Of a stretch of 64,000 bases of DNA, positions 1-63,405 are shown piece by piece. Under the pieces are notes generated by a model. That model did no database searches and had not been told where the DNA came from. It worked only from the letters and a program-made list of their open reading frames with translations. Made by a program: the position numbers and the translations under genes. This DNA comes from Candidatus Nanoarchaeia archaeon (lineage in GTDB: Archaea; Nanobdellota; Nanobdellia; Pacearchaeales; GW2011-AR1), in the NCBI GenBank assembly GCA_028711165.1, contig JAQTST010000001.1, forward strand, positions 14,708-78,707, given 5' to 3'. Every line of letters starts with the position of its first letter. Positions within the stretch are counted from its first letter, which is position 1.

Positions 1-524
1 AATCCGGAAGTGAGAGAATTCAAATGATGAACAATAAAGTTGTAAAATTAGAACACGCTAAAGAGATGGCAAAATATCTCAGAAAGAAAGGAATTTTTGC
101 CACGAATGCTTATATTTTTGGCCACCCGACAGAAACAGAAGAAGAATTAAAACAGACGATTCAATTCATAAAAGAAATTCCTGCAGATGAAAATTTAATT
201 CAATTATACAGGCCGATGCCAGGAACTCCTTATTTTCAGATATGCGTCGAGGCTGGGAGAGTAAAAGTTCCTGAAAGACTTGAAGATTGGGGTGGTTTTG
301 GAGTTCTCGGACATGATGTAAATGTTTCTGAGGTTCCGGATAAAATTTTATTTTCAAATTTTTATAAAACAAATGCTTTGCAGCAGTCAAAATACTGGAT
401 TAACCAGCAAAAGTTTTTTCTTAGGAATAATATGTATGAAGAATTTTTCAGAAATCTTGTTAAGAATAGATTTACATTTAAATTGAAAGAATTTATCGAG
501 AGTAAAAATGAAAAAATTGAATGA
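1..524 (+). CDS. radical SAM protein, C-terminal fragment (5' end lies off-window); resembles the class B (B12-binding) members of this locus
   Basis: The reading frame is open to base 3 ('SGSERIQMMNNK', matching the G-x-ESGS...L..M.K radical SAM core motif). The following 'YIFGHPTETEEEL...PMPGTPYF' parallels the C-terminal halves of the CDSs at 27016..28632 and 49525..51351. Confidence 0.6.
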   Translation, partial: SGSERIQMMNNKVVKLEHAKEMAKYLRKKGIFATNAYIFGHPTETEEELKQTIQFIKEIPADENLIQLYRPMPGTPYFQICVEAGRVKVPERLEDWGGFGVLGHDVNVSEVPDKILFSNFYKTNALQQSKYWINQQKFFLRNNMYEEFFRNLVKNRFTFKLKEFIESKNEKIE

Positions 525-1086
525 AACGGTTAAAAAATTAAATCTCGGATGCGGGGAAGATTATAGAGTGGGGTGGGTTAATCTTGATTTTAATAAAGAA
601 GTAAAAGCAGATGTTTATCATAATTTAGAAAAATTCCCTTACCCATTTAAAGACGATGAATTTGACTTGATATATATTGACAACGCTCTTGAACATGTTC
701 AGAATGTATTAAAGTGTATTGAGGAATTATGGAGAATATCAAAAAAAGGAGCTGAAATAATTATTTATGTCCCCCACTTCACAGGGATATATGCAACAAA
801 ACATCTTGCTCATTATCATCAATTTGGGATAGGAACTTTTGATATATACAAAAAAATCAGCGGACTCGATAAAGGATTTAATGGTGAAAGATACGGCAAA
901 GCAAGATTCGAAATAATTGAACAAAAATTGTTATATTTTCATCATAATTCCGTAGAGATTTCCTTGTTGTCAAAATTACCAATAAACAGGATGTTTAATT
1001 TTAGCCGAAAATGGCAATTAATCTTGGAGAAATTTTTCCCTCTTAAATTTGATGAAATCAGATATAAACTGAAGGTGTTGAAATAA
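508..1086 (+). CDS. class I SAM-dependent methyltransferase
   Basis: SAM motif I 'LNLGCGEDYRVGWVNLD'. Size and layout are typical of Methyltransf_11-like proteins. Overlaps the upstream gene by 17 nt. Confidence 0.75.
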   Translation: MKKLNETVKKLNLGCGEDYRVGWVNLDFNKEVKADVYHNLEKFPYPFKDDEFDLIYIDNALEHVQNVLKCIEELWRISKKGAEIIIYVPHFTGIYATKHLAHYHQFGIGTFDIYKKISGLDKGFNGERYGKARFEIIEQKLLYFHHNSVEISLLSKLPINRMFNFSRKWQLILEKFFPLKFDEIRYKLKVLK

Positions 1087-1916
1087 TGAAAAAAGTAATT
1101 TTAATAACGGGGGGAACGGGATTTATTGGAAGGAATCTTATTCCCTTACTTGAAAAAAAATATGAAATAAAAATTCTTTCCCGAGAGGTAGATGGAGAAA
1201 AAATTGTAAAGGGGGATTTGGTAAATTATGACTCGGTTAAAGACGTTACAAAAAATGTTGATGAAGTAATACACCTAGCATATTCAAAAAATTATCCTGA
1301 AAATATTCTAATGACTGAAAATTTAATTAAGGCTTGTAAAGAAGAGGAGGTAAAAAAAATAATTTTACTAAGTTCAATGTCAGCCAAAAGAAGTTATCCT
1401 GACGATTATGGAAAAAATAAACTTGAAATTGAAAAGATAATTAAGAATTCAGGAATAAATTATACAATATTAAGGCCGAGCATAGTTTATGGGAAGGGAA
1501 GTAAAAGTTTTGATTTTATTATCGAGAAAATAAAAAAATTGCCTTTTATTCCGATAATTGGAAATGGGAAATATGCAATAAGTCCTGTTTATATCGACGA
1601 TGTTATCTGTATGATTGACAAATGTGTGAATAATAAGAAAACGGATAAAAAAGAATATGATTTGCCTGGGGGAGAAAGCATCTGGTTTAGAGATTTGATA
1701 AAAGAACTTAAAAAAGAAATAAACACTTCGAAGAAAGAGATTAATATTCCCATAGGAATTTGCAAAATTGTTGCGAGAATATCCCCAAAGGTTATAAGCA
1801 TGGAAAATATCAAGAATTTGACAGAAGACAGCAAAGCAGATATTGAAATTGCAAGGAAAGATTTAGGCTATAATCCTGTTAAATTTTCCGAAGGAATAAA
1901 AAATGGTCTCATATAA
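1086..1916 (+). CDS. NAD(P)-dependent sugar epimerase/reductase (extended SDR)
   Basis: N-terminal Rossmann motif 'ILITGGTGFIGRNL'. The ATG overlaps the upstream stop (TAATG). Confidence 0.75.
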   Translation: MKKVILITGGTGFIGRNLIPLLEKKYEIKILSREVDGEKIVKGDLVNYDSVKDVTKNVDEVIHLAYSKNYPENILMTENLIKACKEEEVKKIILLSSMSAKRSYPDDYGKNKLEIEKIIKNSGINYTILRPSIVYGKGSKSFDFIIEKIKKLPFIPIIGNGKYAISPVYIDDVICMIDKCVNNKKTDKKEYDLPGGESIWFRDLIKELKKEINTSKKEINIPIGICKIVARISPKVISMENIKNLTEDSKADIEIARKDLGYNPVKFSEGIKNGLI

Positions 1917-3018
1917 ACAGATAATGAAAAGTGCTATTGCACGAAAACCAGTGAGGTCTATAGTCAGTAGCATGTCTACCTTTAGGCACGGCCAAAAAGC
2001 AGGATTGCCATTTAAGTTAAAATTTGAAAGTTCTTCTGTGTGCAATTTAAAATGTGGTATGTGCCCGCTAAATTCAGGATTAAAAAGAAAACAGGGATTT
2101 TTGAAATTTGATAATTTTAAAAAAGTATTTGACCAGATAAAACCTGCGTATCTGAATTTAACTGGTATCGGCGAGCCTTTTCTCAATCCAGATATTTTCG
2201 ATATTATAAAATACGCCAAGAAAAATAAAGCAATGGTAAAATTTGATACAAATGCTATGCTATTAAATGAAGAAAATATAACAAAAATTTTAGAGACAGG
2301 AGTTGATGTTTTATCAATTTCTATCGACGGAACTACGAAAAAAAGTTATGAACAAATAAGAGTTGGAGGAAATTTTGACACAGTCAGACAAAATGTTAAA
2401 AGATTAGTCGAAGAAAGAAATAAAGTAAATTCTTCAACGGAAGTGCATATGTTTTTTGTGCTACAAGCAAAGAATATTCAGGAATTGCCAAATTTTGTAA
2501 AATTAGCTGATGAGCTTGGAGTAAATTATGTTGCAGGAAGTTTTGTTGTTAACCTCGGAGATAATAAAAATGAAAAGAATAAAATATTTGATTACAAAGA
2601 AAAGGTGGACGAATTGGTAAGAGAAACAGAAGAAGCAGTGAAAAATGCAAAAGCGAAAGTGAGTATTGAACCGCTTCTGGAATATATAAAATCTTCAGGG
2701 AGCAAAGAATTCTACAATGAAGACATGCCTTGTTTTATGCCGTGGTATTCTGTTTTTATAACTTGGGATGGCTGGGTAAATCCATGTGATTTTTCATGTG
2801 ATAATGAAATTGTTTTTGGAAATGTTTTTGAAAAACCATTTAAGGAAATCTGGAATAATGAGAAATTAAAAAATTTCAGAATACAACTGTTAAACAGCAG
2901 GAAAGAAATTCCATTATGCAAAAATTGCGGAGTAAATGAAAGTTATATTGAGGATGAATTTAAAAAAATAAGAAAAATTCCTTTTCTAAAACGCCTGCAG
3001 AATAATAAAAATAGCTAA
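1903..3018 (+). CDS. radical SAM protein with SPASM-like C-terminal Cys cluster
   Basis: CX3CX2C 'CNLKCGMCP', 'GIGEPFLNP', and a C-terminal 'PCFMPW...WVNPCDFSC...LCKNCG'. Confidence 0.85.
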   Translation: MVSYKQIMKSAIARKPVRSIVSSMSTFRHGQKAGLPFKLKFESSSVCNLKCGMCPLNSGLKRKQGFLKFDNFKKVFDQIKPAYLNLTGIGEPFLNPDIFDIIKYAKKNKAMVKFDTNAMLLNEENITKILETGVDVLSISIDGTTKKSYEQIRVGGNFDTVRQNVKRLVEERNKVNSSTEVHMFFVLQAKNIQELPNFVKLADELGVNYVAGSFVVNLGDNKNEKNKIFDYKEKVDELVRETEEAVKNAKAKVSIEPLLEYIKSSGSKEFYNEDMPCFMPWYSVFITWDGWVNPCDFSCDNEIVFGNVFEKPFKEIWNNEKLKNFRIQLLNSRKEIPLCKNCGVNESYIEDEFKKIRKIPFLKRLQNNKNS

Positions 3019-3019
3019 A

Positions 3020-3997
3020 ATGGAATATCCAAAAATAAGTGTAATAATGCCAATTTACAATGAAGAGAAAAAGATACAGAAATGTCTGGAAAGTATAAGG
3101 GAGCAGGATTATCCCCAAGATAAAATAGAGATTGTTTTTGTTGACGATGATTCAACAGACAAAAGCCTGGAGATAGCAAAAAAGTACAAAATAAAATATG
3201 TAAGAAATGGTGCTCACGATTATGACATTGGAAAATCTTTGGGAATTAAAGAGGCAACCGGTGAATATATCACATTTCTCGACGGGGATAATATTTTGCC
3301 GAATAAAGATTGGTTTAAAAAAATGATTCAGCCATTAATTGAAGACAAGAGCATTATCGGAAGTCAACTGATGTGGATTAAATATGATAAAAGTTATCCT
3401 TTTTTTGACAGATACTGCACATTATATGGAATTACAGATCCTCTAACAATTTATCTCGAAAAAAGAGGGCATTTAATGCTCTGGGAAAAAAAATGGAAAT
3501 TGGGATTAGTAAAAGATAATGAAAATTATTCTATTGCAGAATTCAATGAAAAGAATTTACCAACAATCGGTTCTGTCGGGTTCACAATAAAAAAAGAATA
3601 TTTGCTAAAAACAGATTATGATCCGGCTTTTTCTCATCTCGACTGTATGCAGGATTTAATTAAATTGGGATTAAAACGCTTTGCGATAGTAAAACAGGAT
3701 ATCATTCACCTGCACTCTTCCAGTTATTCTGATTTCATCGGGAAATTAAAAAGAAATTTAAATATTTTTATGAGAGATTATAAAAAAAGAAGGTACAAAT
3801 GGGAAGCCCCCCTATGGAAAAAAGCTTATGCAACTTTTGCTATGGGGACATTTATTATCCCATTTTATCATGCAACAAGGGGATATCTCAAGATTCATGA
3901 CGTCGCATGGTTTGCACACCCTTTTATTTGTTTTTCTGTTATCACCAAGTATCTTAAAATATTTTTATTCTGGAAATTAGGATGGACAAAAAATTAG
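3020..3997 (+). CDS. family 2 glycosyltransferase with C-terminal hydrophobic segments
   Basis: 'ISVIMPIYNEEKKI', 'VDDDSTD', and DxD 'FLDGDN'. Starts 1 nt after the radical SAM stop. Confidence 0.85.
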   Translation: MEYPKISVIMPIYNEEKKIQKCLESIREQDYPQDKIEIVFVDDDSTDKSLEIAKKYKIKYVRNGAHDYDIGKSLGIKEATGEYITFLDGDNILPNKDWFKKMIQPLIEDKSIIGSQLMWIKYDKSYPFFDRYCTLYGITDPLTIYLEKRGHLMLWEKKWKLGLVKDNENYSIAEFNEKNLPTIGSVGFTIKKEYLLKTDYDPAFSHLDCMQDLIKLGLKRFAIVKQDIIHLHSSSYSDFIGKLKRNLNIFMRDYKKRRYKWEAPLWKKAYATFAMGTFIIPFYHATRGYLKIHDVAWFAHPFICFSVITKYLKIFLFWKLGWTKN

Positions 3998-4912: not shown

Positions 4913-6466
4913 TTAATTATAACTAGTTTCATAAACAATTAGTATAGGTGTTTGTTGTGCCTGATCTTCAAACCATACTTTTACAGGAGTAAATATATCG
5001 GGATATTGCGACGGATAAGTTAAAGTCCACTGAGGATTAGATGGTTCAAATGCTGAAACAACGACATATTTCGGCTTTTCATAATTTATTACGCCCCCCA
5101 ATTGTTCTGGAGTGTAATATGCTCCTTCAGTAGAATTATAAAAAGAAATTACTTTTCTCTCGGAATAATAAACTGTCTGCGGAACTGAAGCAGTCATGAT
5201 TATATCATTAGGATTAGAATTATCTTTCATCCACAGCGCCGCTTCTTTTACAGGCATATAACTACTTACCTTGTCTTTTATTATAATATCTGCATGATTT
5301 AATTGAAAATAAGCACCGAAAATAAGCGCGACAATTAAAATTATTATTGCTAGACTCTTGAAATTTTTTTTGACAAAGTCAAAAATCAAAACCAAGCCCT
5401 TCGCTGAAAGAATAAAGATACCTATTGACATTGCAATAAGCCATCTATTTTCTGCTACTCTTAAGAAGAAGATAAAAAAGAAAAGGATGACTGTTACTAA
5501 TAGGAATGAAAATAAATCATTATAATATTTTTTATCTTTTTTGAATAGAGTAAGATCGAGGCTTAAGAAAAGAGGGAAAAGAGTAGTCAGCCCGATTAAG
5601 AAAAATACGAAAAAACCGAGCTCAGGATAATCATACAAATGCTGAAACATATACCACCCAGGACTTAGATTAGATACATCACCATAACCCTGACTGAAAG
5701 CAAATACATTTCCGTGGTAAAACTGATTCCATATAAGGTAAGGAGATATTGTGAGGATGAAGACTAAAACTGCAATCCACAAATGTTTGTTTTTTAAAAA
5801 TTTAAATTGCTCTGTTGCAAATAAGAAAAAGAAAATAATTCCACCATATAGGATTCCTGTGAGTCGACAGAGAAAAGATAAAGCAACAAAAAAACCAATT
5901 AGCCAGATAAGATATTTTTTTTCTTTTTGGACATATCCTTTCCAGAAACAGAGAAGAGACAAAATCCCAAACAATAATCCAAGCGTGTCAGTCATTAATC
6001 TCATACTGTAGAAGAGATGAATCCATGAAACTGAGGTTATAAACGCAGTTATCAATGCTATTTTTTTATTATACATCTCTTTAACGAGAAGGTATGTGAA
6101 AAGAACAACAAGCAGAGCAGGAATTAATTCGAGAAGGAATTTAATGCTGTTTTCCTGAAATCCAATTTTGTATATTAAAAAAGCTAAAAATGAGAACAAT
6201 GGCGGTCTTGCGGGATGAATCTCATAAGGAATATCAAAAGCCCAATATTTTGCAGCAGATAAATATTCTGCTTCATCATGCCACAAAGTTTGACCATCTG
6301 TGATAAAAAAATAATATGACAGCAAAACAAAAGAAAATATCAAAAGTCCAAATAAAAGGATATTATACTTATTGGTTAAGATAGTTTTTATTTTTCCCTT
6401 TAATTCTTCTTTTTTTTTCTCTGTATCTGATGAAGACTCTTTTATCTCTCCTTTAATTTCTTCCAT
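4913..6466 (-). CDS. GT-C fold membrane glycosyltransferase (ArnT/PMT_2-like)
   Basis: More than 10 hydrophobic spans. Acidic first-loop motif 'WHDEAEYLSAAKYW'. Soluble C-terminal domain of about 130 aa. Confidence 0.6.
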   Translation of the reverse strand: MEEIKGEIKESSSDTEKKKEELKGKIKTILTNKYNILLFGLLIFSFVLLSYYFFITDGQTLWHDEAEYLSAAKYWAFDIPYEIHPARPPLFSFLAFLIYKIGFQENSIKFLLELIPALLVVLFTYLLVKEMYNKKIALITAFITSVSWIHLFYSMRLMTDTLGLLFGILSLLCFWKGYVQKEKKYLIWLIGFFVALSFLCRLTGILYGGIIFFFLFATEQFKFLKNKHLWIAVLVFILTISPYLIWNQFYHGNVFAFSQGYGDVSNLSPGWYMFQHLYDYPELGFFVFFLIGLTTLFPLFLSLDLTLFKKDKKYYNDLFSFLLVTVILFFFIFFLRVAENRWLIAMSIGIFILSAKGLVLIFDFVKKNFKSLAIIILIVALIFGAYFQLNHADIIIKDKVSSYMPVKEAALWMKDNSNPNDIIMTASVPQTVYYSERKVISFYNSTEGAYYTPEQLGGVINYEKPKYVVVSAFEPSNPQWTLTYPSQYPDIFTPVKVWFEDQAQQTPILIVYETSYN

Positions 6467-6505: not shown

Positions 6506-7534
6506 TTAAATCTCAACAAAAGTCTCCTTATTTGTTCCAGGGCAATCTTTGCATAATGCAAGACTTTTTTTATTAGTTAATATTTTTTTTCTGAAAGCAA
6601 GATACTTATTGTTATTCCAAATGTCTCTTATTTTTTCCTTAAACGCATTTCCAAAGACAAACAAGTTGTTCATATCAAAACAGCAAGGAACAACGCTTCC
6701 ATCCCAGTTTACAACAATTTCATCCCAGAGGAAATCGCATTCATTTTTAATTTCTTTTTTTGAAATAACTTTATTGCTATTAACAGAATATCTCGAGTAT
6801 TTTTTATTTTTTGGGAGATATTTTTTTATGTCTTCCTTGGAGAAATAATCCATTATTCCAACTGTTTTGAAAACGATTTCGTCCACGCCCAGAGATTTGG
6901 AAAGAGATTTAATTTTTTGTATTTCATGTTCATTTGATTTCATAATAATAAATTGCAATTTGATGTAAGGATTTGCGCATTTTAATCTCTTTTTCTCATT
7001 AACCAGAAATTGAATTGATTCTATTACTTTTTTGAAATTTCCGCCTTTCCTGTATTGCTGATAAGTTTCTTCAGAAGCGCCATCAAGGGAAACAATAAGT
7101 TCATCAAGTCGGGATTTAATTATCAGGGAAGAAGTATCTTTATCTAAAAAATGACTGTTTGTGCTGAGATTGACAAAAATATTTTTTTCCTTCGCATAAG
7201 AAATCATCTGAAAAATTTCTTTATTCAACAAAGGTTCTCCCCAATTCCATAATCTAAGATGATAAATATAGGGGGAGAGTTCATCAATGACTTTTTTAAA
7301 ATTGGAAAATGTAAGAAAACCTTTTGCTCTTTTTATGAACCCTGCTCCGGTCGGGCATAAAGGACATTTTAAGTTACAGGTATTTGTTGGCTCAATCATA
7401 AGTGTAGGAGGAAATCCAGAAATTTTTATCTTTTTTAATCGTTTAGAAATTTTAATCTTCAGAAGATTGACTAATCTCCGAGGATGAATTAAGATGTATT
7501 TAATAAAATATTTTATCTTTCTTTTTAATTTCAT
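6506..7534 (-). CDS. radical SAM protein with SPASM-like domain
   Basis: 'CNLKCPLCPTG', 'WGEPLLNK', and C-terminal 'VVPCCFD...LCKDCPG'. Resembles 1903..3018. Confidence 0.85.
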   Translation of the reverse strand: MKLKRKIKYFIKYILIHPRRLVNLLKIKISKRLKKIKISGFPPTLMIEPTNTCNLKCPLCPTGAGFIKRAKGFLTFSNFKKVIDELSPYIYHLRLWNWGEPLLNKEIFQMISYAKEKNIFVNLSTNSHFLDKDTSSLIIKSRLDELIVSLDGASEETYQQYRKGGNFKKVIESIQFLVNEKKRLKCANPYIKLQFIIMKSNEHEIQKIKSLSKSLGVDEIVFKTVGIMDYFSKEDIKKYLPKNKKYSRYSVNSNKVISKKEIKNECDFLWDEIVVNWDGSVVPCCFDMNNLFVFGNAFKEKIRDIWNNNKYLAFRKKILTNKKSLALCKDCPGTNKETFVEI

Positions 7535-9280: not shown

Positions 9281-9374
9281 ATTATTTCCTAAGTAAAATA
9301 TAGATTATCTCTTCATAATCTTTAAAAGATAATATAGGTAAAAAGGTGTATGAAAAAAGTGAGGCAAAAGGAAG

Positions 9375-20830: not shown

Positions 20831-20916
20831 AAATTTATTTAAATGAAAATTCGAAAATAGTTTTATGCCTACCGTTTAGGGTAAGATTAGGAAATAAATT
20901 TTAACAGATTTTATAA

Positions 20917-23092: not shown

Positions 23093-23120
23093 GAGAATAT
23101 ATCATTCGGAACATAAGAAT

Positions 23121-23129: not shown

Positions 23130-23150
23130 ATTATTTAGATACAGGATTTT

Positions 23151-41930: not shown

Positions 41931-41935
41931 TTAAA

Positions 41936-43149: not shown

Positions 43150-43164
43150 TGTATCCCATCACAT

Positions 43165-43177
43165 AAATATTTTTAAT
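43165..43177 (+). promoter_or_regulatory. TATA-like box
   Basis: 'aaatatttttaat' lies 22-34 nt upstream of the ATG at 43199. Confidence 0.35.
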
Positions 43178-43198
43178 AGATTTTATTATTCTTAGATT

Positions 43199-44288: not shown

Positions 44289-44308
44289 CTCTGAGAAAAT
44301 TTAGATTG

Positions 44309-46050: not shown

Positions 46051-46051
46051 G

Positions 46052-55275: not shown

Positions 55276-56362
55276 ATTAAAACAGAATGAATTAGAGAAG
55301 AGAAGTTGGTTAAAAGAGAATAAACCAAGAGTTTATGAAAAGGTTTCAAAATTCGCTGAAAAAGCAAAAAGGGGAGAGAGCATTGCGATAATTCAATTTC
55401 AGTATGATTATACTTGCAATTTTAAATGCCCGCATTGTTCAGTAAAAAGATTTCAGGGAAAAAAGCAAGGCAGATATTTTACGATTAAAGATGTCGAAGA
55501 ACTTTCACGGCAGGCTGATGAAATGGGGCTTGCAAATATGGTAATTACGGGAGGAGAACCATTGGTATTTCGGGATTTGGATTATTTAGTTAAAGCAATC
55601 GATCCTAAAAAATTTTATATTTCTTCAGATACAAATGGGTGGTTGTTAAATTATGAAAAAGCAAAACATTTGAAAGAAATTGGTATTGATAAAATTCAAT
55701 TAAGTCTTGACAGCATTACAGAAAATAATTCAGAGAATTTTCATGGAAAGGGAAAAACAAACGGTTGGGCATTAAAAGCTCTTGATGCATCATTAAAAGC
55801 TGAATTAAATACAATTGTTCAGACAGTCGTTACAAAACAGAGAGTTCGGTCAAAGGAGTTTATTGATTTCTTAGAATACCTAAATAAAAAAGATGTGGGA
55901 GTTTTTGTCACTTATGCAAAACCTGTTGGGGCATGGGAAGGAAATTTTGATATTCTCGTCGATAAAGAAGATATGAATTATGTAAAAGAACTGGAAAAAA
56001 GATATAAGGTTTTCACACATTTAACTCCTTCATACGGACTTGACTTGGGATGTATTGCAGTCAAAAGAATGATATCAATTACAAAATATGGAGATGTTAT
56101 GCCTTGTCCTTATATTCATGTTTCACTTGGAAATTTTTTTAAAGAACCGTTAAAAGATATTGTCGAGAGAGGCTTAAAAATAAAATATTTTGGAAATCAT
56201 TGTGATACTTGCCTTATTGCAGAAGACAGGAATTTTATTGACAAATACGTTGTTGGCAGAATATATAACAAACCTCTTCCAGTGCCCTATGATAGGGTAT
56301 TTGATAAAGAGGATTTTATTGAAAAACCTGATTTTGTAAAAAAAGATATCTTAACTCAATAA
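55268..56362 (+). CDS. radical SAM protein with SPASM/twitch-like C-terminus
   Basis: 'CNFKCPHCS', 'ITGGEPLV', 'VMPCPYIH...HCDTCL'. Confidence 0.85.
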   Translation: MNELKQNELEKRSWLKENKPRVYEKVSKFAEKAKRGESIAIIQFQYDYTCNFKCPHCSVKRFQGKKQGRYFTIKDVEELSRQADEMGLANMVITGGEPLVFRDLDYLVKAIDPKKFYISSDTNGWLLNYEKAKHLKEIGIDKIQLSLDSITENNSENFHGKGKTNGWALKALDASLKAELNTIVQTVVTKQRVRSKEFIDFLEYLNKKDVGVFVTYAKPVGAWEGNFDILVDKEDMNYVKELEKRYKVFTHLTPSYGLDLGCIAVKRMISITKYGDVMPCPYIHVSLGNFFKEPLKDIVERGLKIKYFGNHCDTCLIAEDRNFIDKYVVGRIYNKPLPVPYDRVFDKEDFIEKPDFVKKDILTQ

Positions 56363-56372
56363 TATTTTTAAA
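56363..56372 (+). promoter_or_regulatory. TATA-like box (internal promoter in the long plus-strand gene array)
   Basis: 'tatttttaaa' lies 22-31 nt upstream of the ATG at 56394. Confidence 0.3.
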
Positions 56373-56393
56373 CAGATTAATCAGATTTTGATT

Positions 56394-58025
56394 ATGAAAC
56401 TTAGTGATTATGTGACTTCTTTTACAGAGAAAATGACTGACAGTATTTTTTTAGTTTCTGGCGGGGGGATTATGCATCTTGTTGATTCTATTGGGAGAAG
56501 TAATCTTGACAGCTACTGCTGCCATCATGAACAAGCGTGTGCATTGGCTGCTGAAGGATATGCCAGAATGAAAAATGATATTGGTGTTATTTGCGTTACA
56601 ACAGGGCCGGGAGGAACAAATGCAATTACAGGAGTTGCGGCAAGCTGGATGGACGGAATTCCTATGATGGTAATTTCCGGACAGGTGAGAAGAGAAATAA
56701 TGCTAAAAGAAAAAGATAAAAAAAGAGGATTAAGGCAAATCGGTCCTCAGGAACTTAATATCGTTGATGTTGTTAAACCAATCACAAAATATGCTGCGAC
56801 TGTAATGAATCCTAATGAGATAAAATATCATTTAGAAAAAGCAAGTTATATTGCTAAAGAAGGCAAGCCCGGACCTGTTTGGATTGATATACCTTTAGAT
56901 GTTCAGAGTTCTGAAATTGATGAAGAAACTTTAAAAAATTTTTCAGTTCCAAAAAAACAAAAGCTACATATTCCTCTTGAGAAAATTGTCAATGAATTAG
57001 AAAAATCAAAAAAACCATTGATGCTCGTTGGACATGGAGTTAGGCTTGCGGGAGCTTATGATTTATTGTGGGAGTTTATTGAGAAATCTAAAATTAATGT
57101 TGTCTCAGCAATGAGCGGGGATGATTTAGTAAATGAAGATTATCCTTATTACCTTGGCAAGCAAGGAATGACTGGAACAAAGGCAGCAAATTATGCCGTC
57201 GATAATTGTGATTTATTACTTGTTCTTGGAACGAGAATGCAAATGAGACAGACATCTTTTGATTATGATAAATTTGCTAAAAAAGCTAAGAAAATTATGG
57301 TAGATATTGATAAAGCCGAGCTAGATAAAATTAATTTTAAACCGAATATAAAAGTAGAATCTGATGCAAAAGATTTTTTAGAAAATATCTTGGAAAAAGA
57401 GATTAGATTAAATCGGTGGCAGGTTAATACAGAACCTATTCTTTATGAAAGCAAAAAAAATTTTATAGATATTTATGAATTTTTCCAAGAAGGATTAAAT
57501 GGGAAATGTGATTTTCCGATTATTACATCAAATGGGATGACTGCTGAAGTTACTCACCAAGCTGCGAGATTAAAAAAAGGACAGAGATTGATAACAAATA
57601 CTGCTCTTGGTGAAATGGGGAAGGGGTTGCCGATGGCGATTGGAGCATGTATTGCAAATAAGAAAAAACCTGTAATCTGTATGGAAGGCGATGGTTCGAT
57701 AATGATGAATCTTCAGGAATTAGAAACAATGAAATATCATAATCTCCCATTGAAAGTTTTTATTTTTAATAATGGAGGTTACTATTCTATAAGAAATACC
57801 CACAGGAAATTTTTTAATAAAATTTTTGCTGCGGATGAAGAATCGGGAGTAAGTCTTCCCAACTGGGAAAATTTGATTAATGGGTGGGGGATTAAATATG
57901 AAAAAATAAAAAATAAAAATGATTTGTATAAGATTAAAAATATTTTAGATTATCACGGGCCAGTTGTTTGTGAACTGATGATTGATCCAGAACAAAAGGG
58001 ACTTCCGAAATGGAGTGCAAAATGA
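56394..58025 (+). CDS. ThDP-dependent acetolactate-synthase-like carboligase (YerE-like candidate)
   Basis: 'TTGPGGTNAITG', ThDP motif 'GDGSIMMNLQELET...FNNGGY'. First ATG at 56394; the ORF-track start is a TTG. Confidence 0.8.
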   Translation: MKLSDYVTSFTEKMTDSIFLVSGGGIMHLVDSIGRSNLDSYCCHHEQACALAAEGYARMKNDIGVICVTTGPGGTNAITGVAASWMDGIPMMVISGQVRREIMLKEKDKKRGLRQIGPQELNIVDVVKPITKYAATVMNPNEIKYHLEKASYIAKEGKPGPVWIDIPLDVQSSEIDEETLKNFSVPKKQKLHIPLEKIVNELEKSKKPLMLVGHGVRLAGAYDLLWEFIEKSKINVVSAMSGDDLVNEDYPYYLGKQGMTGTKAANYAVDNCDLLLVLGTRMQMRQTSFDYDKFAKKAKKIMVDIDKAELDKINFKPNIKVESDAKDFLENILEKEIRLNRWQVNTEPILYESKKNFIDIYEFFQEGLNGKCDFPIITSNGMTAEVTHQAARLKKGQRLITNTALGEMGKGLPMAIGACIANKKKPVICMEGDGSIMMNLQELETMKYHNLPLKVFIFNNGGYYSIRNTHRKFFNKIFAADEESGVSLPNWENLINGWGIKYEKIKNKNDLYKIKNILDYHGPVVCELMIDPEQKGLPKWSAK

Positions 58026-58693
58026 AAATAGAATCAATAATATTTGATTTTGATGGGGTGCTTGTAAAATCGAATCAAATAAGAAATCAGACTTATTTTG
58101 ATATATTGAGCCATGTACCAAATTCTAAAAAAATAATAGAAGAGGCAATTGCAGAAGATTCAAAAAGAGACAGATATGGAATTATCGAGGCTGTTTTGCA
58201 AGAATTGAAAGATAAAAATTTAATGCAGTTTGAAGATTTAGGAGAAGAAACAGAAAAATATGTTTGCAGGTATAATTGGATTACAGAGAGGAAAGTTTCA
58301 ATAGCTACAGAAGTACCCGGAGCTGAAAAAAGTTTAGAAATGTTAAGCCAAGAATATCCTTTGTTTATTGTTACAGGAACAATTCAAAAAAGTATAGATA
58401 TAGTTTTAAAAAATAGAGAGATGCAAAAATATTTCAAAAAAGTTTATGGGGGATTCAGAGACAAAAAAGAAGGTATGACTATCTTAATAAAAGAACAGAG
58501 GATAAAACAAAGAAGTTCTATTTTTGTTGGAGATGGAAAATCAGATTATGAATGTGCGAGATATCTTTCAATGCCCTTTATAGGAATAATGAATGAAACA
58601 AATGATTTTGAAAAGAGACAAGATGTTATGTGGAAATTGTATGATTTAGAAAAATTACCTAATGTAATCAGAGAGATAAAAGAGAATGAATGA
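58022..58693 (+). CDS. HAD-superfamily hydrolase
   Basis: 'IIFDFDGVLV' (DxDG motif I), 'VGDGKSDYECA' (motif IV). ATGA overlap upstream. Confidence 0.75.
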   Translation: MKIESIIFDFDGVLVKSNQIRNQTYFDILSHVPNSKKIIEEAIAEDSKRDRYGIIEAVLQELKDKNLMQFEDLGEETEKYVCRYNWITERKVSIATEVPGAEKSLEMLSQEYPLFIVTGTIQKSIDIVLKNREMQKYFKKVYGGFRDKKEGMTILIKEQRIKQRSSIFVGDGKSDYECARYLSMPFIGIMNETNDFEKRQDVMWKLYDLEKLPNVIREIKENE

Positions 58694-60005
58694 AGAAAAA
58701 AAGTTAAGAAAAGAAATTTTGGAAAGAGTTAAACAGATATATAATTTAAGAAAAGAAAATGAAAAGTTTACTCCTGGAATTGACAGAGTTAATTATTCAG
58801 GAAGAGTTTTTGACGAAAAAGAGATGTTAGCTCTTGTGAATAGCTCTCTTGATTTTTGGCTAACTCTCGGGAAGGAAGGAAAAGAGTTTGAAAAAAAATT
58901 TGGAGATTATCTGGGGTTGGAAAAAGTAATTGTTTGTAATTCTGGCTCTTCTGCAAATTTACTTGCAATAAGTTCTCTGTGCTCTCCGACGATTGATAAT
59001 CCATTAAAAAGGGGAGAAGAGATTATAACAACTGCCGCAACTTTTCCTACGACATTAGCTCCGATAATCCAGAATAACTTAATTCCAGTTTTTATCGATA
59101 TAAACTTGGGGGATTATAACATTCAAGCAGAAAAAATTGAAAAAGCAGTTTCAAAAAAAACAAGAGCTATCTTTTTTGCTCATACATTAGGAAATCCTGC
59201 AGATATGGAAAAAATAATGCGGATAGCAGATAGATATCATCTTTATGTTATTGAAGATACCTGTGATGCTCTTGATTCAAAATATGATGGAAAGTTAGTA
59301 GGAACTTTTGGAGACATATCTACATATAGTTTTTATGCCGCTCACCACATAACTATGGGGGAGGGGGGCGCATTAGCAACAAATAATTCTAAAATTGCAA
59401 GAGCAATATTATCCCTGAGAGATTGGGGAAGAGACTGTCTCTGTCCAACTGGAGAAAAAAATCCTCTTGGTGCATGCGAGAGCAGATTCAAACATAAATT
59501 TCCTCTGCTTCCTGAAGGATATGATCATAAATATGTTTACAGCAATATTGGGTATAATTTAAAACCGTTAGATTTGCAATGTACAATTGGAATAGAACAG
59601 TTAGAAAAATTACCCGAATTTTCAAAAAAGAGAAAAGAGAATTTTCAACAGATTTATAATACATTCTCAAAATATGAAAATAAATTAATTTTACCGTCGT
59701 GGAATCCAAAAGCAGATGTTTCCTGGTTTGCATTTCCTATCACTGTAAAAGAAAATGCGGGATTTGGAAGAAGAGATATTGTAAATTTTCTGGAGAATAA
59801 AAAAATTGAAACTAGAATGTTATTTGGAGGAAATATTTTAAGACAACCGGGTTTTACTAAAATAAAAAAGAGAATTGTAGGAGATTTAATAAATACAGAC
59901 AGAGTTTTGAATGATACTTTTTTTATTGGAGTTTATCCCGGATTGACTAAAGAGAAAATCAATTATGTATGTGAAAGCATTGAAGATTTTTTTAAGAAGT
60001 ACTAG
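58686..60005 (+). CDS. rfbH: CDP-6-deoxy-4-hexulose 3-dehydrase (E1; RfbH/DdhC-like PMP enzyme)
   Basis: About 439 aa. 'SSLDFWLT', 'RDWGRDCLCPTGEKNPLGACESRF' (Cys-rich Fe-S region typical of RfbH), DegT-like fold. Confidence 0.8.
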   Translation: MNEEKKLRKEILERVKQIYNLRKENEKFTPGIDRVNYSGRVFDEKEMLALVNSSLDFWLTLGKEGKEFEKKFGDYLGLEKVIVCNSGSSANLLAISSLCSPTIDNPLKRGEEIITTAATFPTTLAPIIQNNLIPVFIDINLGDYNIQAEKIEKAVSKKTRAIFFAHTLGNPADMEKIMRIADRYHLYVIEDTCDALDSKYDGKLVGTFGDISTYSFYAAHHITMGEGGALATNNSKIARAILSLRDWGRDCLCPTGEKNPLGACESRFKHKFPLLPEGYDHKYVYSNIGYNLKPLDLQCTIGIEQLEKLPEFSKKRKENFQQIYNTFSKYENKLILPSWNPKADVSWFAFPITVKENAGFGRRDIVNFLENKKIETRMLFGGNILRQPGFTKIKKRIVGDLINTDRVLNDTFFIGVYPGLTKEKINYVCESIEDFFKKY

Positions 60006-60006
60006 A

Positions 60007-61470
60007 TTAATTATTTTTTTCACTAAGGTATAACAAATCATATTTTCTTATCAAAGAAAAATTTTCAGCATCAATAGGTTCACCAATGCCAATCCCATAT
60101 TTTATAGAACTATAATCTGTGTTATCGTGTGTATTTTTGCTCATTCCCCCTGAAATCCAGATTTGTCTTCTGTCCTGAATATTTGGAATAGGCATAAATG
60201 TTTTTTCAAATAAGATAGTTTGATTATTCAAAAAGAGATTATAATCTTCGATGCTTACAAATTCTTTGACATCATCTCCCCAGTACAAATGGGAAATTTT
60301 TTGAAAATTATCATTTTCATTTCCGACGATAAAAGTTTCTTCAGGAAATTCTTCAACTATCTTTTTTATATCATTCTGGAAGATAATATTTTTATTTTCA
60401 GAAATTTCTATGTTATTAAATTTAGATAAGATAGAGGAAAATTCTTCAATATTTGTAGAGTAATTTATTTGTATAGCATAAGGGATTATAACTAAGAGAG
60501 ATATAACTGAAAAGATAGCTATTTGCTTCCTGAATTGTTTCTCTGTAAGTTTTGGAATTAATTCTAGAAGAATTATGGGAGTCAACAATAAAAGATAACG
60601 GATTTGGGGATTTTTTAGCAGGATTAAAAAGCTCAGAAAGAGGAAAATAAGTGTTTTTTTGTTATCTCTCCAATCTTCTTTAGAAAATAATTTATAAGTA
60701 AAAAAAGGCAGGAATAGGAGAAGGGATAAAAAAGTTACAAAGGGAAATGAAGAACCCATAGTTCCATAAACTCCCTGGAAAAAAGCTGCCGTGATAATTC
60801 CTGATAAATATCTTAATATTCCTATAAAAGCAAAATTAAACAAATAATTATCTAAGATTAGTTTAGGAAGAAGTCCGACAAATAAGAAGAGGACAAATAA
60901 AATAGAATGATAAAATTTTTTATTGTAAAAAAAAGCGAGGAAAAGTGCAATCAGTAAAAATAATGCGCCATCCCAGAAACCCCATGATAGCCCCATTAAA
61001 ATGCCTGAAAGAATTAAAGATTTAATCTTTTCAGTTTTATCATATTTTTTAATGAAAAAGTATGCCCATAAAAATAATAAAGAAGATAATTGGATAGAGT
61101 TTATCCACGGTGCCATATACCAAACAACAGGAGACAGAATCATAAGCCAAAATATTTTTTTATTTTTCCCGCTAATCCAAAAAGCAGAGTATGTTAAGAG
61201 TAATAAAAAAATCAAACTTAATATTTTGAAAATGAGGAAATTATCGAATAAAGAAAGTAATGGCGAGACTAAAAAACCGTACAGATAAGAATGTGAAGAA
61301 CGAATATCTGCATTTAAATCTCCAGAAAAATATTTTGCAACATCAGAATAATCTCCGACGTCAGTAGAGCCTTCATAAGTTGTTAAAAGAGTTACAGAAA
61401 TGAGTAATATTAATAATAACAAGATTATCCAATTCTTTTTTAAAGAAAGAAATTTATCAAAAATTTTCAT
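60007..61470 (-). CDS. polytopic membrane protein, probable GT-C fold glycosyltransferase
   Basis: About 10 hydrophobic spans. First-loop acidic motif 'DVGDYSDVAKYF', comparable to 'HDEAEYLSAAKYW' of 4913..6466. Soluble C-terminal domain of about 150 aa. Confidence 0.45.
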   Translation of the reverse strand: MKIFDKFLSLKKNWIILLLLILLISVTLLTTYEGSTDVGDYSDVAKYFSGDLNADIRSSHSYLYGFLVSPLLSLFDNFLIFKILSLIFLLLLTYSAFWISGKNKKIFWLMILSPVVWYMAPWINSIQLSSLLFLWAYFFIKKYDKTEKIKSLILSGILMGLSWGFWDGALFLLIALFLAFFYNKKFYHSILFVLFLFVGLLPKLILDNYLFNFAFIGILRYLSGIITAAFFQGVYGTMGSSFPFVTFLSLLLFLPFFTYKLFSKEDWRDNKKTLIFLFLSFLILLKNPQIRYLLLLTPIILLELIPKLTEKQFRKQIAIFSVISLLVIIPYAIQINYSTNIEEFSSILSKFNNIEISENKNIIFQNDIKKIVEEFPEETFIVGNENDNFQKISHLYWGDDVKEFVSIEDYNLFLNNQTILFEKTFMPIPNIQDRRQIWISGGMSKNTHDNTDYSSIKYGIGIGEPIDAENFSLIRKYDLLYLSEKNN

Positions 61471-61598
61471 CAGTTTAGGAGATAAACAGAGTTTTTATTT
61501 TTTGAGTATCTGGGATAGTATATTCAGGAAAATTATATATTGGATAAGAATATCTAAACTACATAAAGCCTTAAAAGCAAAGTTCATATTTGTTTTTT
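61471..61598. promoter_or_regulatory. divergent promoter region with two TATA-like boxes
   Basis: 'gtttttattt' (61491..61500) lies 21-30 nt upstream of the minus-strand ATG (61470). 'ccttaaaagc' (61569..61578) lies 21-30 nt upstream of the ATG at 61599. Confidence 0.4.
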
Positions 61599-62459
61599 AT
61601 GAAAATTGGTGTAGTTGGTGTGGGTATTGTTGGTGGAGCTACAGCAAAAGTTCTAGAAAAAAAGCATGATATTTATCTTTATGACAAATTTAAACCAGAA
61701 TATAATTCAGAAAAAAATCTTGAGAAACTTATTATTAATTCAGAAGTGATTTTTATTTGTGTTCCAACACCTATGAAAGTTACAGGAGAAATTGATTATT
61801 CCTCAATCTATAGTTCAATGAACCAGCTAAATAAAGAGATAAAAAAAGTTGAAAGGAATCCAGAGGATATTCTTATCACTGTGAGATCAACTGCAGTGTC
61901 AGGAACAACTGATAGACTCGCTAAGGAGTATCCGTTTAGGTTTGCATTTAATCCTGAATTTTTGAGAGAAAAATATTCAGTCGAAGATATGGAAAAAACA
62001 GACAGGGTAGTGATAGGAGCAAATGATGAGAAAAGCAGAGACCAACTAAGAGAAGTTTATGAATCTCTTTTTCCTGATGCAAAATATGTTATGGTTACAA
62101 GAAAAGAAGCGGAGATGATAAAGTATGCAGCAAATGTAACTCTGGCTGCGCAGATAGCAATTGCAAATGAAATTTATCAAATCTGTAGTGCTGCAGGGGT
62201 TAATTATAATACTGTAAAAGAGGCTATTTTACTAGATAAAAGAATTGGAAGCAATATTGATGTTCCTGGTCCTGATGGAGATTTTGGGTTTGGGGGAAAA
62301 TGTTTCCCAAAAGATTTGAAAGCATTGATAAGATTATCACAAGAAGAAGAATACGATCCTTACCTCCTTCAAGAAGTCTGGAGGACAAATGAAAAATTAA
62401 GGAAAGATAAAGATTGGTTGAATATTACGGGGGCAACCGCAAAAAATAATTATTTGTAA
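61599..62459 (+). CDS. UDP-glucose/GDP-mannose dehydrogenase-family protein, short form lacking the C-terminal UDP-binding domain
   Basis: '[12 protein letters not shown]', 'NPEFLREK', catalytic-Cys motif 'GGKCFPKDL'. It ends about 100 aa earlier than canonical enzymes. Confidence 0.7.
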
Positions 62460-62460
62460 A

Positions 62461-63405
62461 ATGAAAATCTTAGTTACTGGTGGAGCAGGTTTTATTGGGA
62501 ATCATCTGTGCAGATATTTATTAAGGGAAGGAAATGAAGTTGTTTGTCTGGATAATTTTTTTACTGGAAAGAGTGCAAATGTAGCGGACTTAAAAAAGAA
62601 TTTAGAATTTAGAGTTATGCCACATGATATAACTAATCCGCTCGATTTAAAAGAACATTTTGATAGGATTTACAATTTAGCATGTCCAGCTTCTCCTGTT
62701 CATTACCAGTTTGATCCAATTGAAACAATAAAAACCAGCACGATAGGAGTGATTAATATTCTCGATTTTGCAAAATTAAATGGTGCAAGAATTCTGCAAG
62801 CATCGACCTCGGAGATTTATGGAGATCCGTTAGAACACCCCCAAACAGAAACTTACAAAGGAAATGTTAATACTCTAGGACCAAGAGCCTGCTATGATGA
62901 AGGGAAAAGAGTTGCAGAAACCTTATTGATGGATTATCATCGGACATATAAAGTCCCTGTGAGAATTGCAAGAATTTTTAATACCTATGGTCCAAACATG
63001 GATAAAGATGATGGCAGAGTTGTCAGTAATTTTATTGTACAGGCATTAAACAATCAACCAATAACAATTTATGGAACAGGAAAACAAACAAGAAGTTTTT
63101 GCTATGTTTCAGATCTAGTCAGAGGACTTTACAATTTAATGGAATCAAATAATATCGGACCGATTAATCTTGGAAATCCGGGGGAATTCACGATGTTAGA
63201 ACTAGCAGAGAAAATTATAAAATTAACAGATTCAAAAAGCAAAATCGAGTATAAAGAATTGCCACAAGATGACCCCCACCAAAGGAAACCAGATATAACT
63301 CTTGCAAAAAAAATTTTGGGATGGGAACCGAAGATAAAATTAGATGAAGGCTTAACAAAGACAATCAATTATTTTAAGAAATCAATTAAAAATCCTTATT
63401 CTTAA
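62461..63405 (+). CDS. uxs: UDP-glucuronate decarboxylase (UDP-xylose synthase)
   Basis: '[14 protein letters not shown]', 'LDNFFTG', '[10 protein letters not shown]', 'RIFNTYGP'. Confidence 0.9.

Follow-up and report, generated by a model that had tools for sequence, protein, structure and literature searches.

Organization of the locus

The stretch analyzed here, referred to as the window, comprises 64,000 nucleotides of contig JAQTST010000001.1 (assembly GCA_028711165.1, positions 14,708 to 78,707) from an uncultured DPANN archaeon, a member of the Nanoarchaeia of the Pacearchaeota/Woesearchaeota type, and carries 16 genes encoding oxygen-sensitive radical S-adenosylmethionine (SAM) enzymes that are interspersed with genes for the synthesis and transfer of activated sugars. 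The nearest homologs of the window proteins are found in metagenome-assembled genomes (MAGs) of Pacearchaeota, Woesearchaeota and Nanoarchaeota. The window has a G+C content of approximately 31% and is densely packed, with 61 open reading frames (ORFs) of at least 150 aa and a largest intergenic gap of 119 nt. The radical SAM genes account for 16 of these 61 genes (26%); roughly 1-2% is typical of a genome. Every other gene with a Pfam or NCBIfam match is sugar-related, and the ORFs lacking a clear family match are 30160-31368 (a weak Gtf3_C match only), 60007-61470 and 63421-63885. Judging from the gene content, the window is most likely the larger part of an island of at least 73 kb for the biosynthesis of a lipid-linked cell-surface glycan.

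The original prediction, made from the letters of the window alone, placed the radical SAM genes in one locus of more than 63 kb, an extent that holds but was understated. On the overlapping contig L087, which belongs to an independent assembly and is identical to the window across the 2757 bp overlap, the island continues for at least 9.5 kb beyond the window start, and the window and this visible left flank together contain at least 17 radical SAM genes. The left flank encodes two more family 2 glycosyltransferases (GT2), a GT2-methyltransferase fusion, another PMT_2 enzyme, a polysaccharide deacetylase, the 17th radical SAM protein (radical SAM/SPASM), a second flippase and a Glycos_transf_4 initiating transferase of the AglH/WecA type. 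On the right side, a small membrane ORF is followed by a SecD/F-like gene, which places the end of the island at approximately 63.4-63.9 kb. The longest contig that carries these genes is 623,136 bp, of which the island occupies roughly a tenth. No mismatches to the assemblies of three independent sequencing runs are observed over positions 1-2757, 17016-31670 and 52461-64000, and this recurrence indicates that the window is not an assembly artifact. The features are listed in Table 1, and genes are referred to below by their first listed position or by both positions.

Table 1. Positions, strands and supporting evidence for features of the window (SDR, short-chain dehydrogenase/reductase; NDP, nucleoside diphosphate; ThDP, thiamine diphosphate; UDP-GlcNAc, uridine diphosphate N-acetylglucosamine; HAD, haloacid dehalogenase; GT4, family 4 glycosyltransferase).
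Feature	Position	Strand	Evidence
Class-B radical SAM enzyme, C-terminal part (full protein 472 aa)	1-524	+	PF04055 C-terminal third, 26 bits; CAFKCGFC at residue 192 on L087
Twitch radical SAM enzyme, group A	1903-3018	+	Radical_SAM 66.8 bits, SPASM 66.5 bits; BtrN alignment
GT2 glycosyltransferase	3020-3997	+	Pfam
GT-C glycosyltransferase PMT_2, ~11 transmembrane segments	4913-6466	-	Pfam, hydropathy
Twitch radical SAM enzyme, group A, 34% identical to 1903	6506-7534	-	
Further glycosyltransferases	7531-8439, 14262-15140, 20917-22080, 22049-23092, 53012-54088		Pfam
NDP-heptose-type module	8537-14261	+	Best matches to heptose families, all below equivalog cutoffs
Class-B radical SAM enzyme	15137-16672	-	PF02310 50.4 bits, PF04055 52.9 bits
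NTP-transferase-GT4 fusion, 627 aa	16786-18669	+	Pfam
Radical SAM enzyme, short C-terminal Cys cluster C-x17-C ... CX3CX3C	18666-19649	-	PF04055 80.2 bits, weak SPASM 20.5 bits
Twitch radical SAM enzyme, group A, N-terminal extension of ~85 aa	19646-20830	-	
UDP-GlcNAc 3-dehydrogenase-like oxidoreductase, hexapeptide acyltransferase, DegT aminotransferase	23151-25730	+	Pfam/NCBIfam
Class-B radical SAM enzyme	25725-27014	-	PF02310 57.8 bits, PF04055 83.3 bits
Class-B radical SAM enzyme adjoining Wzx	27016-28632	-	B12-binding and Radical_SAM Pfam, AlphaFold, Foldseek
Wzx/MurJ-type flippase, polytopic	28664-30178	-	Polysacc_synt 75.8 bits, hydropathy scan
Protein with weak Gtf3_C match, 402 aa	30160-31368	-	
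Tandem twitch radical SAM pair, group B	31465-32514 and 32516-33556	+	73% identical
Radical SAM enzyme, group-B relative, C-x17-C ... C-x3-C tail	35045-36142	-	
Twitch radical SAM enzyme, group A, adjoining RmlD-like reductase	40240-41181	-	
Methyltransferase, split transketolase-like ThDP enzyme (41936-42673, 42670-43149), twitch radical SAM enzyme (43199-44248)	41268-44248	+	Pfam
Glucose-1-phosphate cytidylyltransferase	44306-45091	+	TIGR02623, 305.5 bits, cutoff 300.25
NeuB-cupin fusion	46052-47623	+	NeuB and Cupin_2 Pfam
Polyprenyl/dolichyl-phosphate sugar synthase-type GT2 (ArnC/PgfS-like), two C-terminal transmembrane helices	47697-48671	+	
Class-B radical SAM enzyme	49501-51351	+	Pfam
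Two overlapping radical SAM genes	54085-55275 and 55268-56362	+	
Acetolactate-synthase-like ThDP enzyme, HAD phosphatase, RfbH/E1	56388-60005	+	ThDP domains; RfbH at 58686-60005
Membrane protein, ~9 transmembrane segments, no family match; candidate Wzy-like polymerase or GT-C enzyme	60007-61470	-	

Identity and diversity of the radical SAM enzymes

Profile and motif evidence identifies each of the 16 proteins as a member of the radical SAM superfamily. The 15 complete ones reach 34.3-83.3 bits with PF04055, against a gathering cutoff of 29.5, and a regular-expression scan of the ORFs of at least 150 aa finds the CX3CX2C motif in exactly the 15 complete ORFs for which it had been predicted and in none of the 45 others. 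Five of the 16 belong to class B: the four complete proteins originally assigned to it (15137-16672, 25725-27014, 27016-28632 and 49501-51351) contain PF02310 at 50-61 bits (threshold 32.1), and the protein at the left edge, predicted as a probable fifth, is complete on L087, where it has a B12-binding domain, a Radical_SAM domain and the motif CAFKCGFC. The remaining 11 carry a single twitch-type Cys set. None of the radical SAM ORFs is disrupted, and each has a complete Cys motif; the start of one of them, initially given as 49525, lies more likely at 49501.

In the alignment of 1903-3018 with BtrN (E 2e-11), the founding twitch enzyme, the four Cys residues of the BtrN auxiliary cluster align with C277, C295, C339 and C342; beyond the twitch domain the similarity is marginal, at 10.7 bits. 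The twitch assignment is based on this residue alignment for 1903-3018 and on the Cys pattern for the other ten enzymes, in which the C-x17-C ... C-x2/3-C spacing recurs. The earlier description of these C-terminal clusters as SPASM/twitch-like is correct in its second half, since most of the proteins have just 4-5 C-terminal Cys residues and the seven-Cys SPASM motif (CX9-15GX4C ... CX2CX5CX3C ... C) is absent. PF13186 (SPASM) scores above threshold in nine proteins, which reflects the first half of the motif that is common to both types.

An all-against-all comparison reveals that 31465 and 32516, which are 73% identical, are the sole recent duplicate pair; all other pairs within the island are 20-34% identical or lack detectable similarity. 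The locus therefore contains about 14 distinct radical SAM lineages, and a recent burst of paralogs is ruled out because just one pair exceeds 35% identity. The twitch enzymes include a group A (1903, 6506, 19646 and 40240) and a group B (31465, 32516, 43199 and 35045), and 18666, 54085 and 55268 are singletons outside these groups and class B. The mutual identity of 20-34% between lineages contrasts with 50-80% identity to the orthologs in other genomes, which indicates purifying selection.

The nearest solved structures by sequence include the carbohydrate-acting enzymes BtrN, DesII, BlsE and AprD4. The closest match in the Protein Data Bank (PDB) is the AprD4 core for 25725-27014 (1.6e-16), AprD4 for 27016-28632 (E 1e-15) and SkfB for 18666-19649 (9e-13). 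The AlphaFold model of 27016-28632 has a predicted local distance difference test score (pLDDT) of 93, and its top Foldseek matches are OxsB, TsrM, MgmA, CysS, AprD4 and TokK. As in OxsB, TsrM, TokK, CysS and MgmA, an N-terminal Rossmann-like B12-binding domain precedes the radical SAM barrel (Foldseek E 1e-22 to 1e-15 for the 27016 model), at an identity to the solved class-B structures of 14-21%. The model of 43199-44248 (pLDDT 92) matches SuiB (top), DesII, SkfB, BlsE, anSME, viperin, MoaA and BtrN at approximately equal levels. The two fold searches confirm the class-B and the twitch/SPASM architecture, respectively, and do not distinguish between sugar and peptide substrates.

A feature that sets two of the class-B enzymes apart from the GenK/GenD1/Fom3-type set is a small C-terminal β-sheet domain with an invariant CxxC...CxxC set. 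In 27016-28632 this domain spans residues 454-505, and C469, C472, C495 and C498 are invariant in the family; 49501-51351 has the same set at C466, C469, C488 and C491. The domain may be a zinc ribbon or hold an additional Fe-S site, and we know of none in the solved class-B structures.

The overlapping genes 54085-55275 and 55268-56362 share 8 nt, which suggests that they are translationally coupled. The former encodes a 140-aa N-terminal PF22674 (C2185-like_N) domain, with CX3CX2C beginning at residue 150, and the latter has a MoaA-like core with a twitch Cys set. A role of 25725-27014 in phosphonate metabolism, raised by PhpK as its top NCBIfam match, is rejected, as the score is 161 against a cutoff of 600 bits; Pfam analysis of the window proteins finds neither phosphoenolpyruvate (PEP) mutase nor phosphonopyruvate decarboxylase.

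Conservation of the gene neighborhoods in other genomes

A profile of the 27016 lineage detects 533 relatives in the GTDB species representatives, where the closest match to the window protein is 57% identical. The ORFs of the best 79 loci were classified against the window's own proteins: sugar-pathway genes are present within 10 kb in 67 of the 79, and 47 contain at least two radical SAM genes. The DPANN loci of at least 12 kb hold a median of four radical SAM and six sugar genes, and one Pacearchaeota contig contains eight radical SAM genes within 21.6 kb, together with ThDP enzymes, SDRs and DegT. The archaeal carriers of this lineage are DPANN archaea, Methanoregula and Methanoperedens; the bacterial carriers are Desulfobacterota, Elusimicrobia, Planctomycetes, Omnitrophota, Kiritimatiellae, Riflebacteria, Nitrospirota and one bacterium of the candidate phyla radiation (CPR). 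The taxa with related loci are anaerobes almost throughout.

For the 1903 lineage, a cassette is conserved in the order AglH-like glycosyltransferase, optional flippase, GT2, GT2, class-B radical SAM enzyme, SDR, twitch radical SAM enzyme and GT2, which is the arrangement at the left end of the island in the window. In locus L094 (JGI 3300025902 contig Ga0209202_1000025), a cassette of this type lies directly downstream of a gene for a 927-aa STT3/AglB protein. The 1903 homolog of L094 is 65% identical, and NCBI names the source 'Candidatus Paceibacterota bacterium' (CPR) although the locus has STT3; an error in the binning or labeling of the record, or a transfer of the cassette between DPANN archaea and CPR bacteria, would account for this. 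In locus L095, the Topo VI B gene adjoining the cassette contains an intein.

For the 43199 family, 1.84 billion cluster representatives yield 504 relatives at E ≤ 1e-30. The module of methyltransferase, split transketolase and radical SAM enzyme at 41268-44248 recurs in loci L003, L004, L006 and L091, and in further DPANN loci, as in the window, the 43199 lineage adjoins a split transketolase-like enzyme. GmhA and HldE lie beside the pair of 43199-lineage and transketolase genes in Methanoregula and a deltaproteobacterial MAG. Natural fusions join the lineage to a CTP_transf_like/RfaE-II-like nucleotidyltransferase (three proteins), a SIS/GmhA-like domain, an acetolactate synthase (ALS)-like ThDP domain, DegT and a SAM methyltransferase, and Transket_pyr-radical SAM fusions are found in P0132 and P0138. 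These fusions are the strongest single evidence that a radical SAM lineage of the island acts in nucleotide-sugar metabolism. A further homolog of 43199-44248, P0465 (631 aa), contains an intein-splicing domain just before or inside its radical SAM core.

The second subunit of the split transketolase (of 41936-43149, + strand) is a protein of 159 aa with Transket_pyr alone and no Transketolase_C, whereas the second subunits of Methanoregula and the deltaproteobacterium are approximately 305-314 aa long and contain both domains. It is possible that the split transketolase merely supplies sedoheptulose-7-phosphate to a heptose route. However, the existence of DPANN versions without the transketolase C-terminal domain and the fusion of the Transket_pyr half to a radical SAM enzyme favor a direct role in sugar tailoring.

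The class-B gene 49501-51351 belongs to an operon that encodes an NTP-transferase, a 4,6-dehydratase, the NeuB-cupin fusion, a GT2, an SDR, the radical SAM enzyme, a NUDIX hydrolase and a C-methyltransferase. The operon is syntenic in L003, and the module recurs across several bacterial phyla. The NeuB-cupin gene travels together with an ALS-like ThDP enzyme, a C-methyltransferase, NUDIX and a class-B radical SAM enzyme in loci L040, L046, L054, L059, L068, L075 and L083, the carriers being Planctomycetes, Desulfobacterota, Verrucomicrobia, Bacillota and others; this set looks like a conserved route to a possibly higher-carbon sugar. Additionally, homologs of 35045-36142 are paired with RmlD-like reductases. 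In the related loci fetched for three radical SAM lineages, no clusters for ribosomally synthesized and post-translationally modified peptides (RiPPs), cofactors or lipids are seen; the homologous clusters adjoin sugar genes instead. Neither of the two computationally accessible conditions that would refute the original hypothesis, failure to score as radical SAM and a consistent location among RiPP, lipid or cofactor genes, is thus observed.

Sugar-nucleotide pathways, glycosyltransferases and export

Pfam and NCBIfam reproduce the predicted numbers of sugar genes in the window: six of nucleotidyltransferase type, eight SDRs, two DegT aminotransferases, five methyltransferases, two ThDP systems and approximately 11 glycosyltransferases, in addition to Wzx and the polyprenyl-phosphate GT2. 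A pathway to cytidine diphosphate (CDP)-3,6-dideoxyhexose is represented by the glucose-1-phosphate cytidylyltransferase, an SDR within 44306-47623 (+ strand) that best matches the CDP-glucose 4,6-dehydratase model TIGR02622 below its cutoff (219.6 against 278), and RfbH/E1, the CDP-4-keto-6-deoxyglucose 3-dehydrase, at 58686-60005 (NF011936, 629.7 against 423). The E3 reductase of this route is not identified in the window. The ALS-like ThDP enzyme of the 56388-60005 block may have a role like that of YerE, the ALS-like ThDP type of yersiniose branching. Two TylC3-type C-methyltransferases and a NUDIX hydrolase are also present in the window.

The heptose-type block at 8537-14261 encodes an NTP-transferase, an HddA-like kinase-HAD fusion, a second GHMP (HddA-like) kinase, a GmhA-like SIS isomerase, an SDR and an RfaE-domain-II-like nucleotidyltransferase. 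The genes at 23151-25730 resemble a route of UDP-GlcNAc 3-oxidation, transamination and N-acylation, which would yield a 3-amino sugar (UDP-GlcNAc3N).

The glycosyltransferases comprise six GT2 and two GT4 enzymes (one fused to a nucleotidyltransferase), the weak Gtf3_C-like protein, the ArnC/PgfS-like GT2 and the PMT_2 GT-C enzyme. As for a Wzx/Wzy-type system, Wzx lies in the window, the left flank contributes Glycos_transf_4 and a second flippase, and the sole candidate for Wzy is 60007-61470. The reading of the locus as a lipid-linked surface-glycan pathway, put forward originally, is backed by Wzx, the GT-C enzymes, the dolichyl-phosphate (Dol-P)-type GT2 and the flanking Glycos_transf_4 initiating transferase.

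Proposed function and alternative explanations

In light of the gene content, the conserved neighborhoods and the fusions, most radical SAM enzymes of the island probably tailor the sugars of the glycan; the reaction type assigned to any individual enzyme is considerably less certain. The proposed pathway would start from CDP-glucose, which would be converted to CDP-4-keto-6-deoxyglucose and then, via RfbH/E1, to a 3,6-dideoxyhexose, while other routes would lead to NDP-heptose (GmhA-, HddA- and RfaE-II-like enzymes), through UDP-GlcNAc 3-oxidation, transamination and acylation, and through a NeuB-type PEP condensation. The radical SAM enzymes are expected to act in the cytoplasm on NDP-sugars or lipid-linked intermediates in an oxygen-independent manner. 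The five class-B enzymes would catalyze the cobalamin-dependent C-methylation of unactivated sugar carbons or, less likely, an AprD4-like 1,2-diol dehydration; GenK, GenD1 and Fom3 are cobalamin-dependent radical SAM C-methylases, of which GenK and GenD1 methylate sugar carbons. The 11 twitch enzymes would abstract a hydrogen from a carbinol C-H of the sugar, and the auxiliary [4Fe-4S] cluster would oxidize the ketyl radical, converting the alcohol to a ketone as in BtrN; epimerization, a DesII-like deamination or dehydration by elimination, and a BlsE-like decarboxylation are the alternatives. The resulting keto-sugars may be handed to the flanking RmlD-type SDR reductases, aminotransferases, C-methyltransferases and ThDP C-C ligases, which would explain the tight interleaving of the genes.

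The methyltransferase, split transketolase and radical SAM enzyme of 41268-44248 may form one functionally coupled unit whose substrate would be a nucleotide sugar of the heptose type. The approximately 11 glycosyltransferases would then assemble the lipid-linked glycan, Wzx would flip it and the GT-C enzymes would handle it further. The orthologous cassette adjacent to STT3 suggests that the glycan ends up N-linked to surface proteins in an AglB-dependent manner.

Several observations weigh against this assignment to sugar tailoring. Direct neighborhood evidence covers three of the approximately 14 lineages, and the others are tied to sugar genes by co-occurrence in the same fetched loci. None of the 16 proteins reaches the cutoff of any curated NCBIfam family, the best scores being 10-40% of the cutoffs, which indicates uncharacterized subfamilies; the sugar-acting equivalogs are among those not reached (AprD4 NF033070, 77 against 500; DesII TIGR04426, 43 against 450; BlsE TIGR04466, 44 against 400). 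The similarity of the class-B enzymes to AprD4 is confined to the radical SAM core (NF033070, 61-77 against 500 bits). The 43199 model scores similarly against the RiPP maturases SuiB, SkfB and CteB and against anSME as it does against DesII and BlsE, and the fold alone therefore gives no substrate class. We know of no sequence motif that is diagnostic of cobalamin binding and methyl transfer, and DPANN archaea are usually unable to make cobalamin. Pfam detects no STT3/AglB either within the window or in the flanking sequence that is visible, including the 9.5 kb on the left; a gene for AglB may lie in another part of the genome. What is observed directly are the domain identities, the order of the genes, their conserved context and the fusions, whereas the substrates, the reaction types (including the C-methylation, epimerization and others suggested in the original prediction) and the final glycan are inferred.

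Among the other explanations, it is unlikely that some or all of these enzymes modify isoprenoid lipids, such as the dolichol carrier or membrane ether lipids, in the manner of Tes/GDGT-MAS and Gms (twitch type) or GrsA/B and Gmm (B12 type). Archaeal lipids are indeed modified by both classes of radical SAM enzyme (PMC11214058), GDGT-MAS (7tol) is the best PDB match of 32516-33556 (E 2e-11) and is listed for four other enzymes, and TIGR04072, 'lipid biosynthesis B12-binding/radical SAM', is the top NCBIfam match of 15137-16672. However, the sequence matches are confined to the radical SAM core, and the scores remain far under the cutoffs (Tes NF045702, 29-43 against 450 bits; TIGR04072, 94-109 against 360). 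Radical SAM genes for lipids cluster with one another as gms-grs-gmm, and just six Gmm homologs have been reported in DPANN (PMC11214058), whereas the neighbors in the island are sugar enzymes and one of its lineages is fused to sugar-nucleotide enzymes. The low scores and the sugar-gene context lead to the rejection of lipid modification as the main explanation. That the island instead makes a diffusible glycoside resembling an aminoglycoside or nucleoside antibiotic is quite unlikely, although the density of tailoring enzymes is very high and the characterized relatives BtrN, AprD4, DesII, BlsE and OxsB all come from antibiotic pathways. With the flank included, the island encodes two Wzx-type flippases, two PMT_2 GT-C enzymes, a Dol-P-type GT2, a Glycos_transf_4 initiator and approximately 11 glycosyltransferases, and a related cassette adjoins STT3/AglB; in the window, Pfam finds no aglycone gene, 2-deoxy-scyllo-inosose synthase, resistance gene or antibiotic-type exporter.

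The similarity of the twitch/SPASM-type enzymes to peptide-modifying enzymes raises the question of whether they are protein or peptide maturases (RiPP, anSME-like formylglycine or metalloenzyme maturation), acting for example on the S-layer or on a glycan-processing enzyme, which is very unlikely. For most of them the top NCBIfam model is 'tungsten cofactor oxidoreductase radical SAM maturase', PqqE and the sactipeptide and ranthipeptide models also appear, and the top Foldseek match of the 43199 model is SuiB, yet the NCBIfam scores are 85-159 against 380 bits. Pfam detects no RiPP recognition element (RRE) or PqqD domain, and CX3CX2C starts at residues 29-53 in 9 of the 11 proteins, which leaves no room for an RRE (19646-20830 and 54085-55275 are longer). 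The intergenic gaps, at most 119 nt, provide no space for precursor-peptide ORFs; the enzymes have one auxiliary-cluster Cys set, in contrast to the two of anSME and most peptide maturases; and the homologs lie in sugar loci or are fused to sugar enzymes. The maturase reading is rejected on the lack of an RRE, of precursor space and of RiPP neighbors and on the single auxiliary Cys set. An artifact, in which mis-assembly, a binning chimera or decaying paralogs bring the genes together without a coherent function, is exceedingly improbable. The sequence is a MAG and the dehydrogenase at 61590-62459 looks truncated, but the three independent run assemblies agree without mismatch, the ORFs and Cys motifs are complete and under purifying selection, and similar radical SAM densities occur in many other genomes.

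Beyond sugar tailoring by this island, a broader proposal can be advanced tentatively, with a chance of being right that falls somewhat short of even: DPANN archaea and many strict anaerobes may possess an unrecognized radical toolkit for glycan tailoring, in which at least 14 lineages act on nucleotide sugars, a new coupled radical-SAM/ThDP reaction, hinted at by the fusions with transketolase-like, ALS-like, GmhA-like and nucleotidyltransferase domains, operates on NDP-heptoses, and new N-glycan monosaccharides serve in contact between symbiont and host. Such a toolkit, if real, would introduce C-methyl groups, C-C branches, extra deoxygenations, epimerizations and chain extensions beyond the chemistry of nicotinamide adenine dinucleotide, pyridoxal phosphate and SAM.

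Comparison with known systems

The radical SAM superfamily and the idea of radical sugar tailoring are already known from BtrN, DesII, AprD4, GenK, BlsE and OxsB, which are single enzymes in antibiotic pathways. BtrN, the 2-deoxy-scyllo-inosamine dehydrogenase of butirosin biosynthesis, shares with the twitch enzymes a radical SAM core followed by a C-terminal domain with one auxiliary [4Fe-4S] cluster, and it acts on a carbohydrate-like secondary alcohol. However, BtrN has 250 aa and belongs to an aminoglycoside cluster, whereas the twitch enzymes here have 313-396 aa and lie in an archaeal lipid-linked glycan island. Five paralogous class-B lineages occur in this one glycan locus, compared with one known C-methylase per antibiotic cluster. 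AprD4, the 1,2-diol dehydratase of C3-deoxygenation in apramycin biosynthesis, acts on an aminoglycoside sugar together with a partner reductase, and SDRs flank the class-B genes here; AprD4 does not use cobalamin, whereas the class-B proteins pass the B12-binding Pfam threshold. DesII (a TDP-sugar deaminase/dehydrogenase) and BlsE (cytosylglucuronate decarboxylase) are weak sequence matches (E 1e-4 to 1e-6; approximately 40 bits against family cutoffs of 400-450) and are among the top structural neighbors of the 43199 model, with a TM-score of 0.66-0.70. DesII has no auxiliary cluster.

At the level of the locus, the glucose-1-phosphate cytidylyltransferase, the dehydratase-like SDR, RfbH and the nearby ALS-like ThDP enzyme correspond to the O-antigen pathways of 3,6-dideoxyhexoses and yersiniose (RfbF, RfbG, RfbH and YerE), and Wzx, GT2/GT4 enzymes, a Dol-P-sugar synthase and an AglH-like initiating glycosyltransferase are common to the island and to archaeal Agl loci. 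Whereas 17 radical SAM genes lie in approximately 73 kb here, the O-antigen and Agl loci that are known have none or, at most, a single unstudied one. A full-text literature search, which mostly did not reach subscription journals, finds radical-SAM-rich glycan loci described neither in DPANN nor in other organisms, and its results on DPANN and radical SAM enzymes concern mostly membrane lipids, with none on such loci. A description of Leptospira rfb loci as rich in radical SAM genes is not corroborated by this search. The closest mention is a single unstudied radical SAM gene in the HS:19 capsule locus of C. jejuni (PMC8743553).

Radical-SAM-rich sugar loci are thus widespread among anaerobes rather than peculiar to the window, and they are apparently undescribed; the scale, the diversity, the setting in a cell-surface pathway of N-glycan type and the phylogenetic breadth were not previously known. 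Radical SAM sugar chemistry is so far known from a handful of antibiotic pathways with one or two enzymes each, whereas a primary surface-glycan pathway here includes at least 17 enzymes, which represent about 14 distinct kinds and belong to no curated family. The related loci across DPANN, methanogens, CPR and many anaerobic bacterial phyla point to a large and essentially untouched enzymology and probably to unknown monosaccharides. For a DPANN archaeon with a reduced genome, the expenditure of about a tenth of a 623-kb contig on one glycan island suggests that the surface glycan is central to a host-dependent lifestyle. The fusions and conserved cassettes provide concrete substrate hypotheses, and some of the modules occur in genera with cultured members, such as Methanoregula.

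Additional features of individual genes

Best-match proteins to the NTP-transferase-GT4 fusion at 16786-18669 recur in several related loci, which suggests that sugar activation and transfer may be channeled. Homologs of the weak Gtf3_C-match protein 30160-31368 directly adjoin a class-B radical SAM gene and Wzx in the DPANN loci L009, L011, L013-L015, L017, L018, L024 and L029. The SDR of the heptose block (12648-13745, + strand) contains no Cys, and an insertion of approximately 35 aa splits its Epimerase match into residues 3-129 and 165-336.

The DegT ORF, read from a GTG at 24561 to 25730 on the + strand, overlaps the acetyltransferase gene 24137-24622 by 62 nt; in independent gene calls the DegT protein has 368 aa, and the true start is probably approximately 21 codons downstream of 24561. 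The homolog of UDP-glucose/GDP-mannose dehydrogenase at 61590-62459 (+ strand) is short (289 aa) and lacks the C-terminal UDP-binding domain. Pfam recognizes the central domain and, of the N-domain, positions 62-187; the next gene begins at 62461, and the protein may be a truncated or a minimal form of the enzyme.

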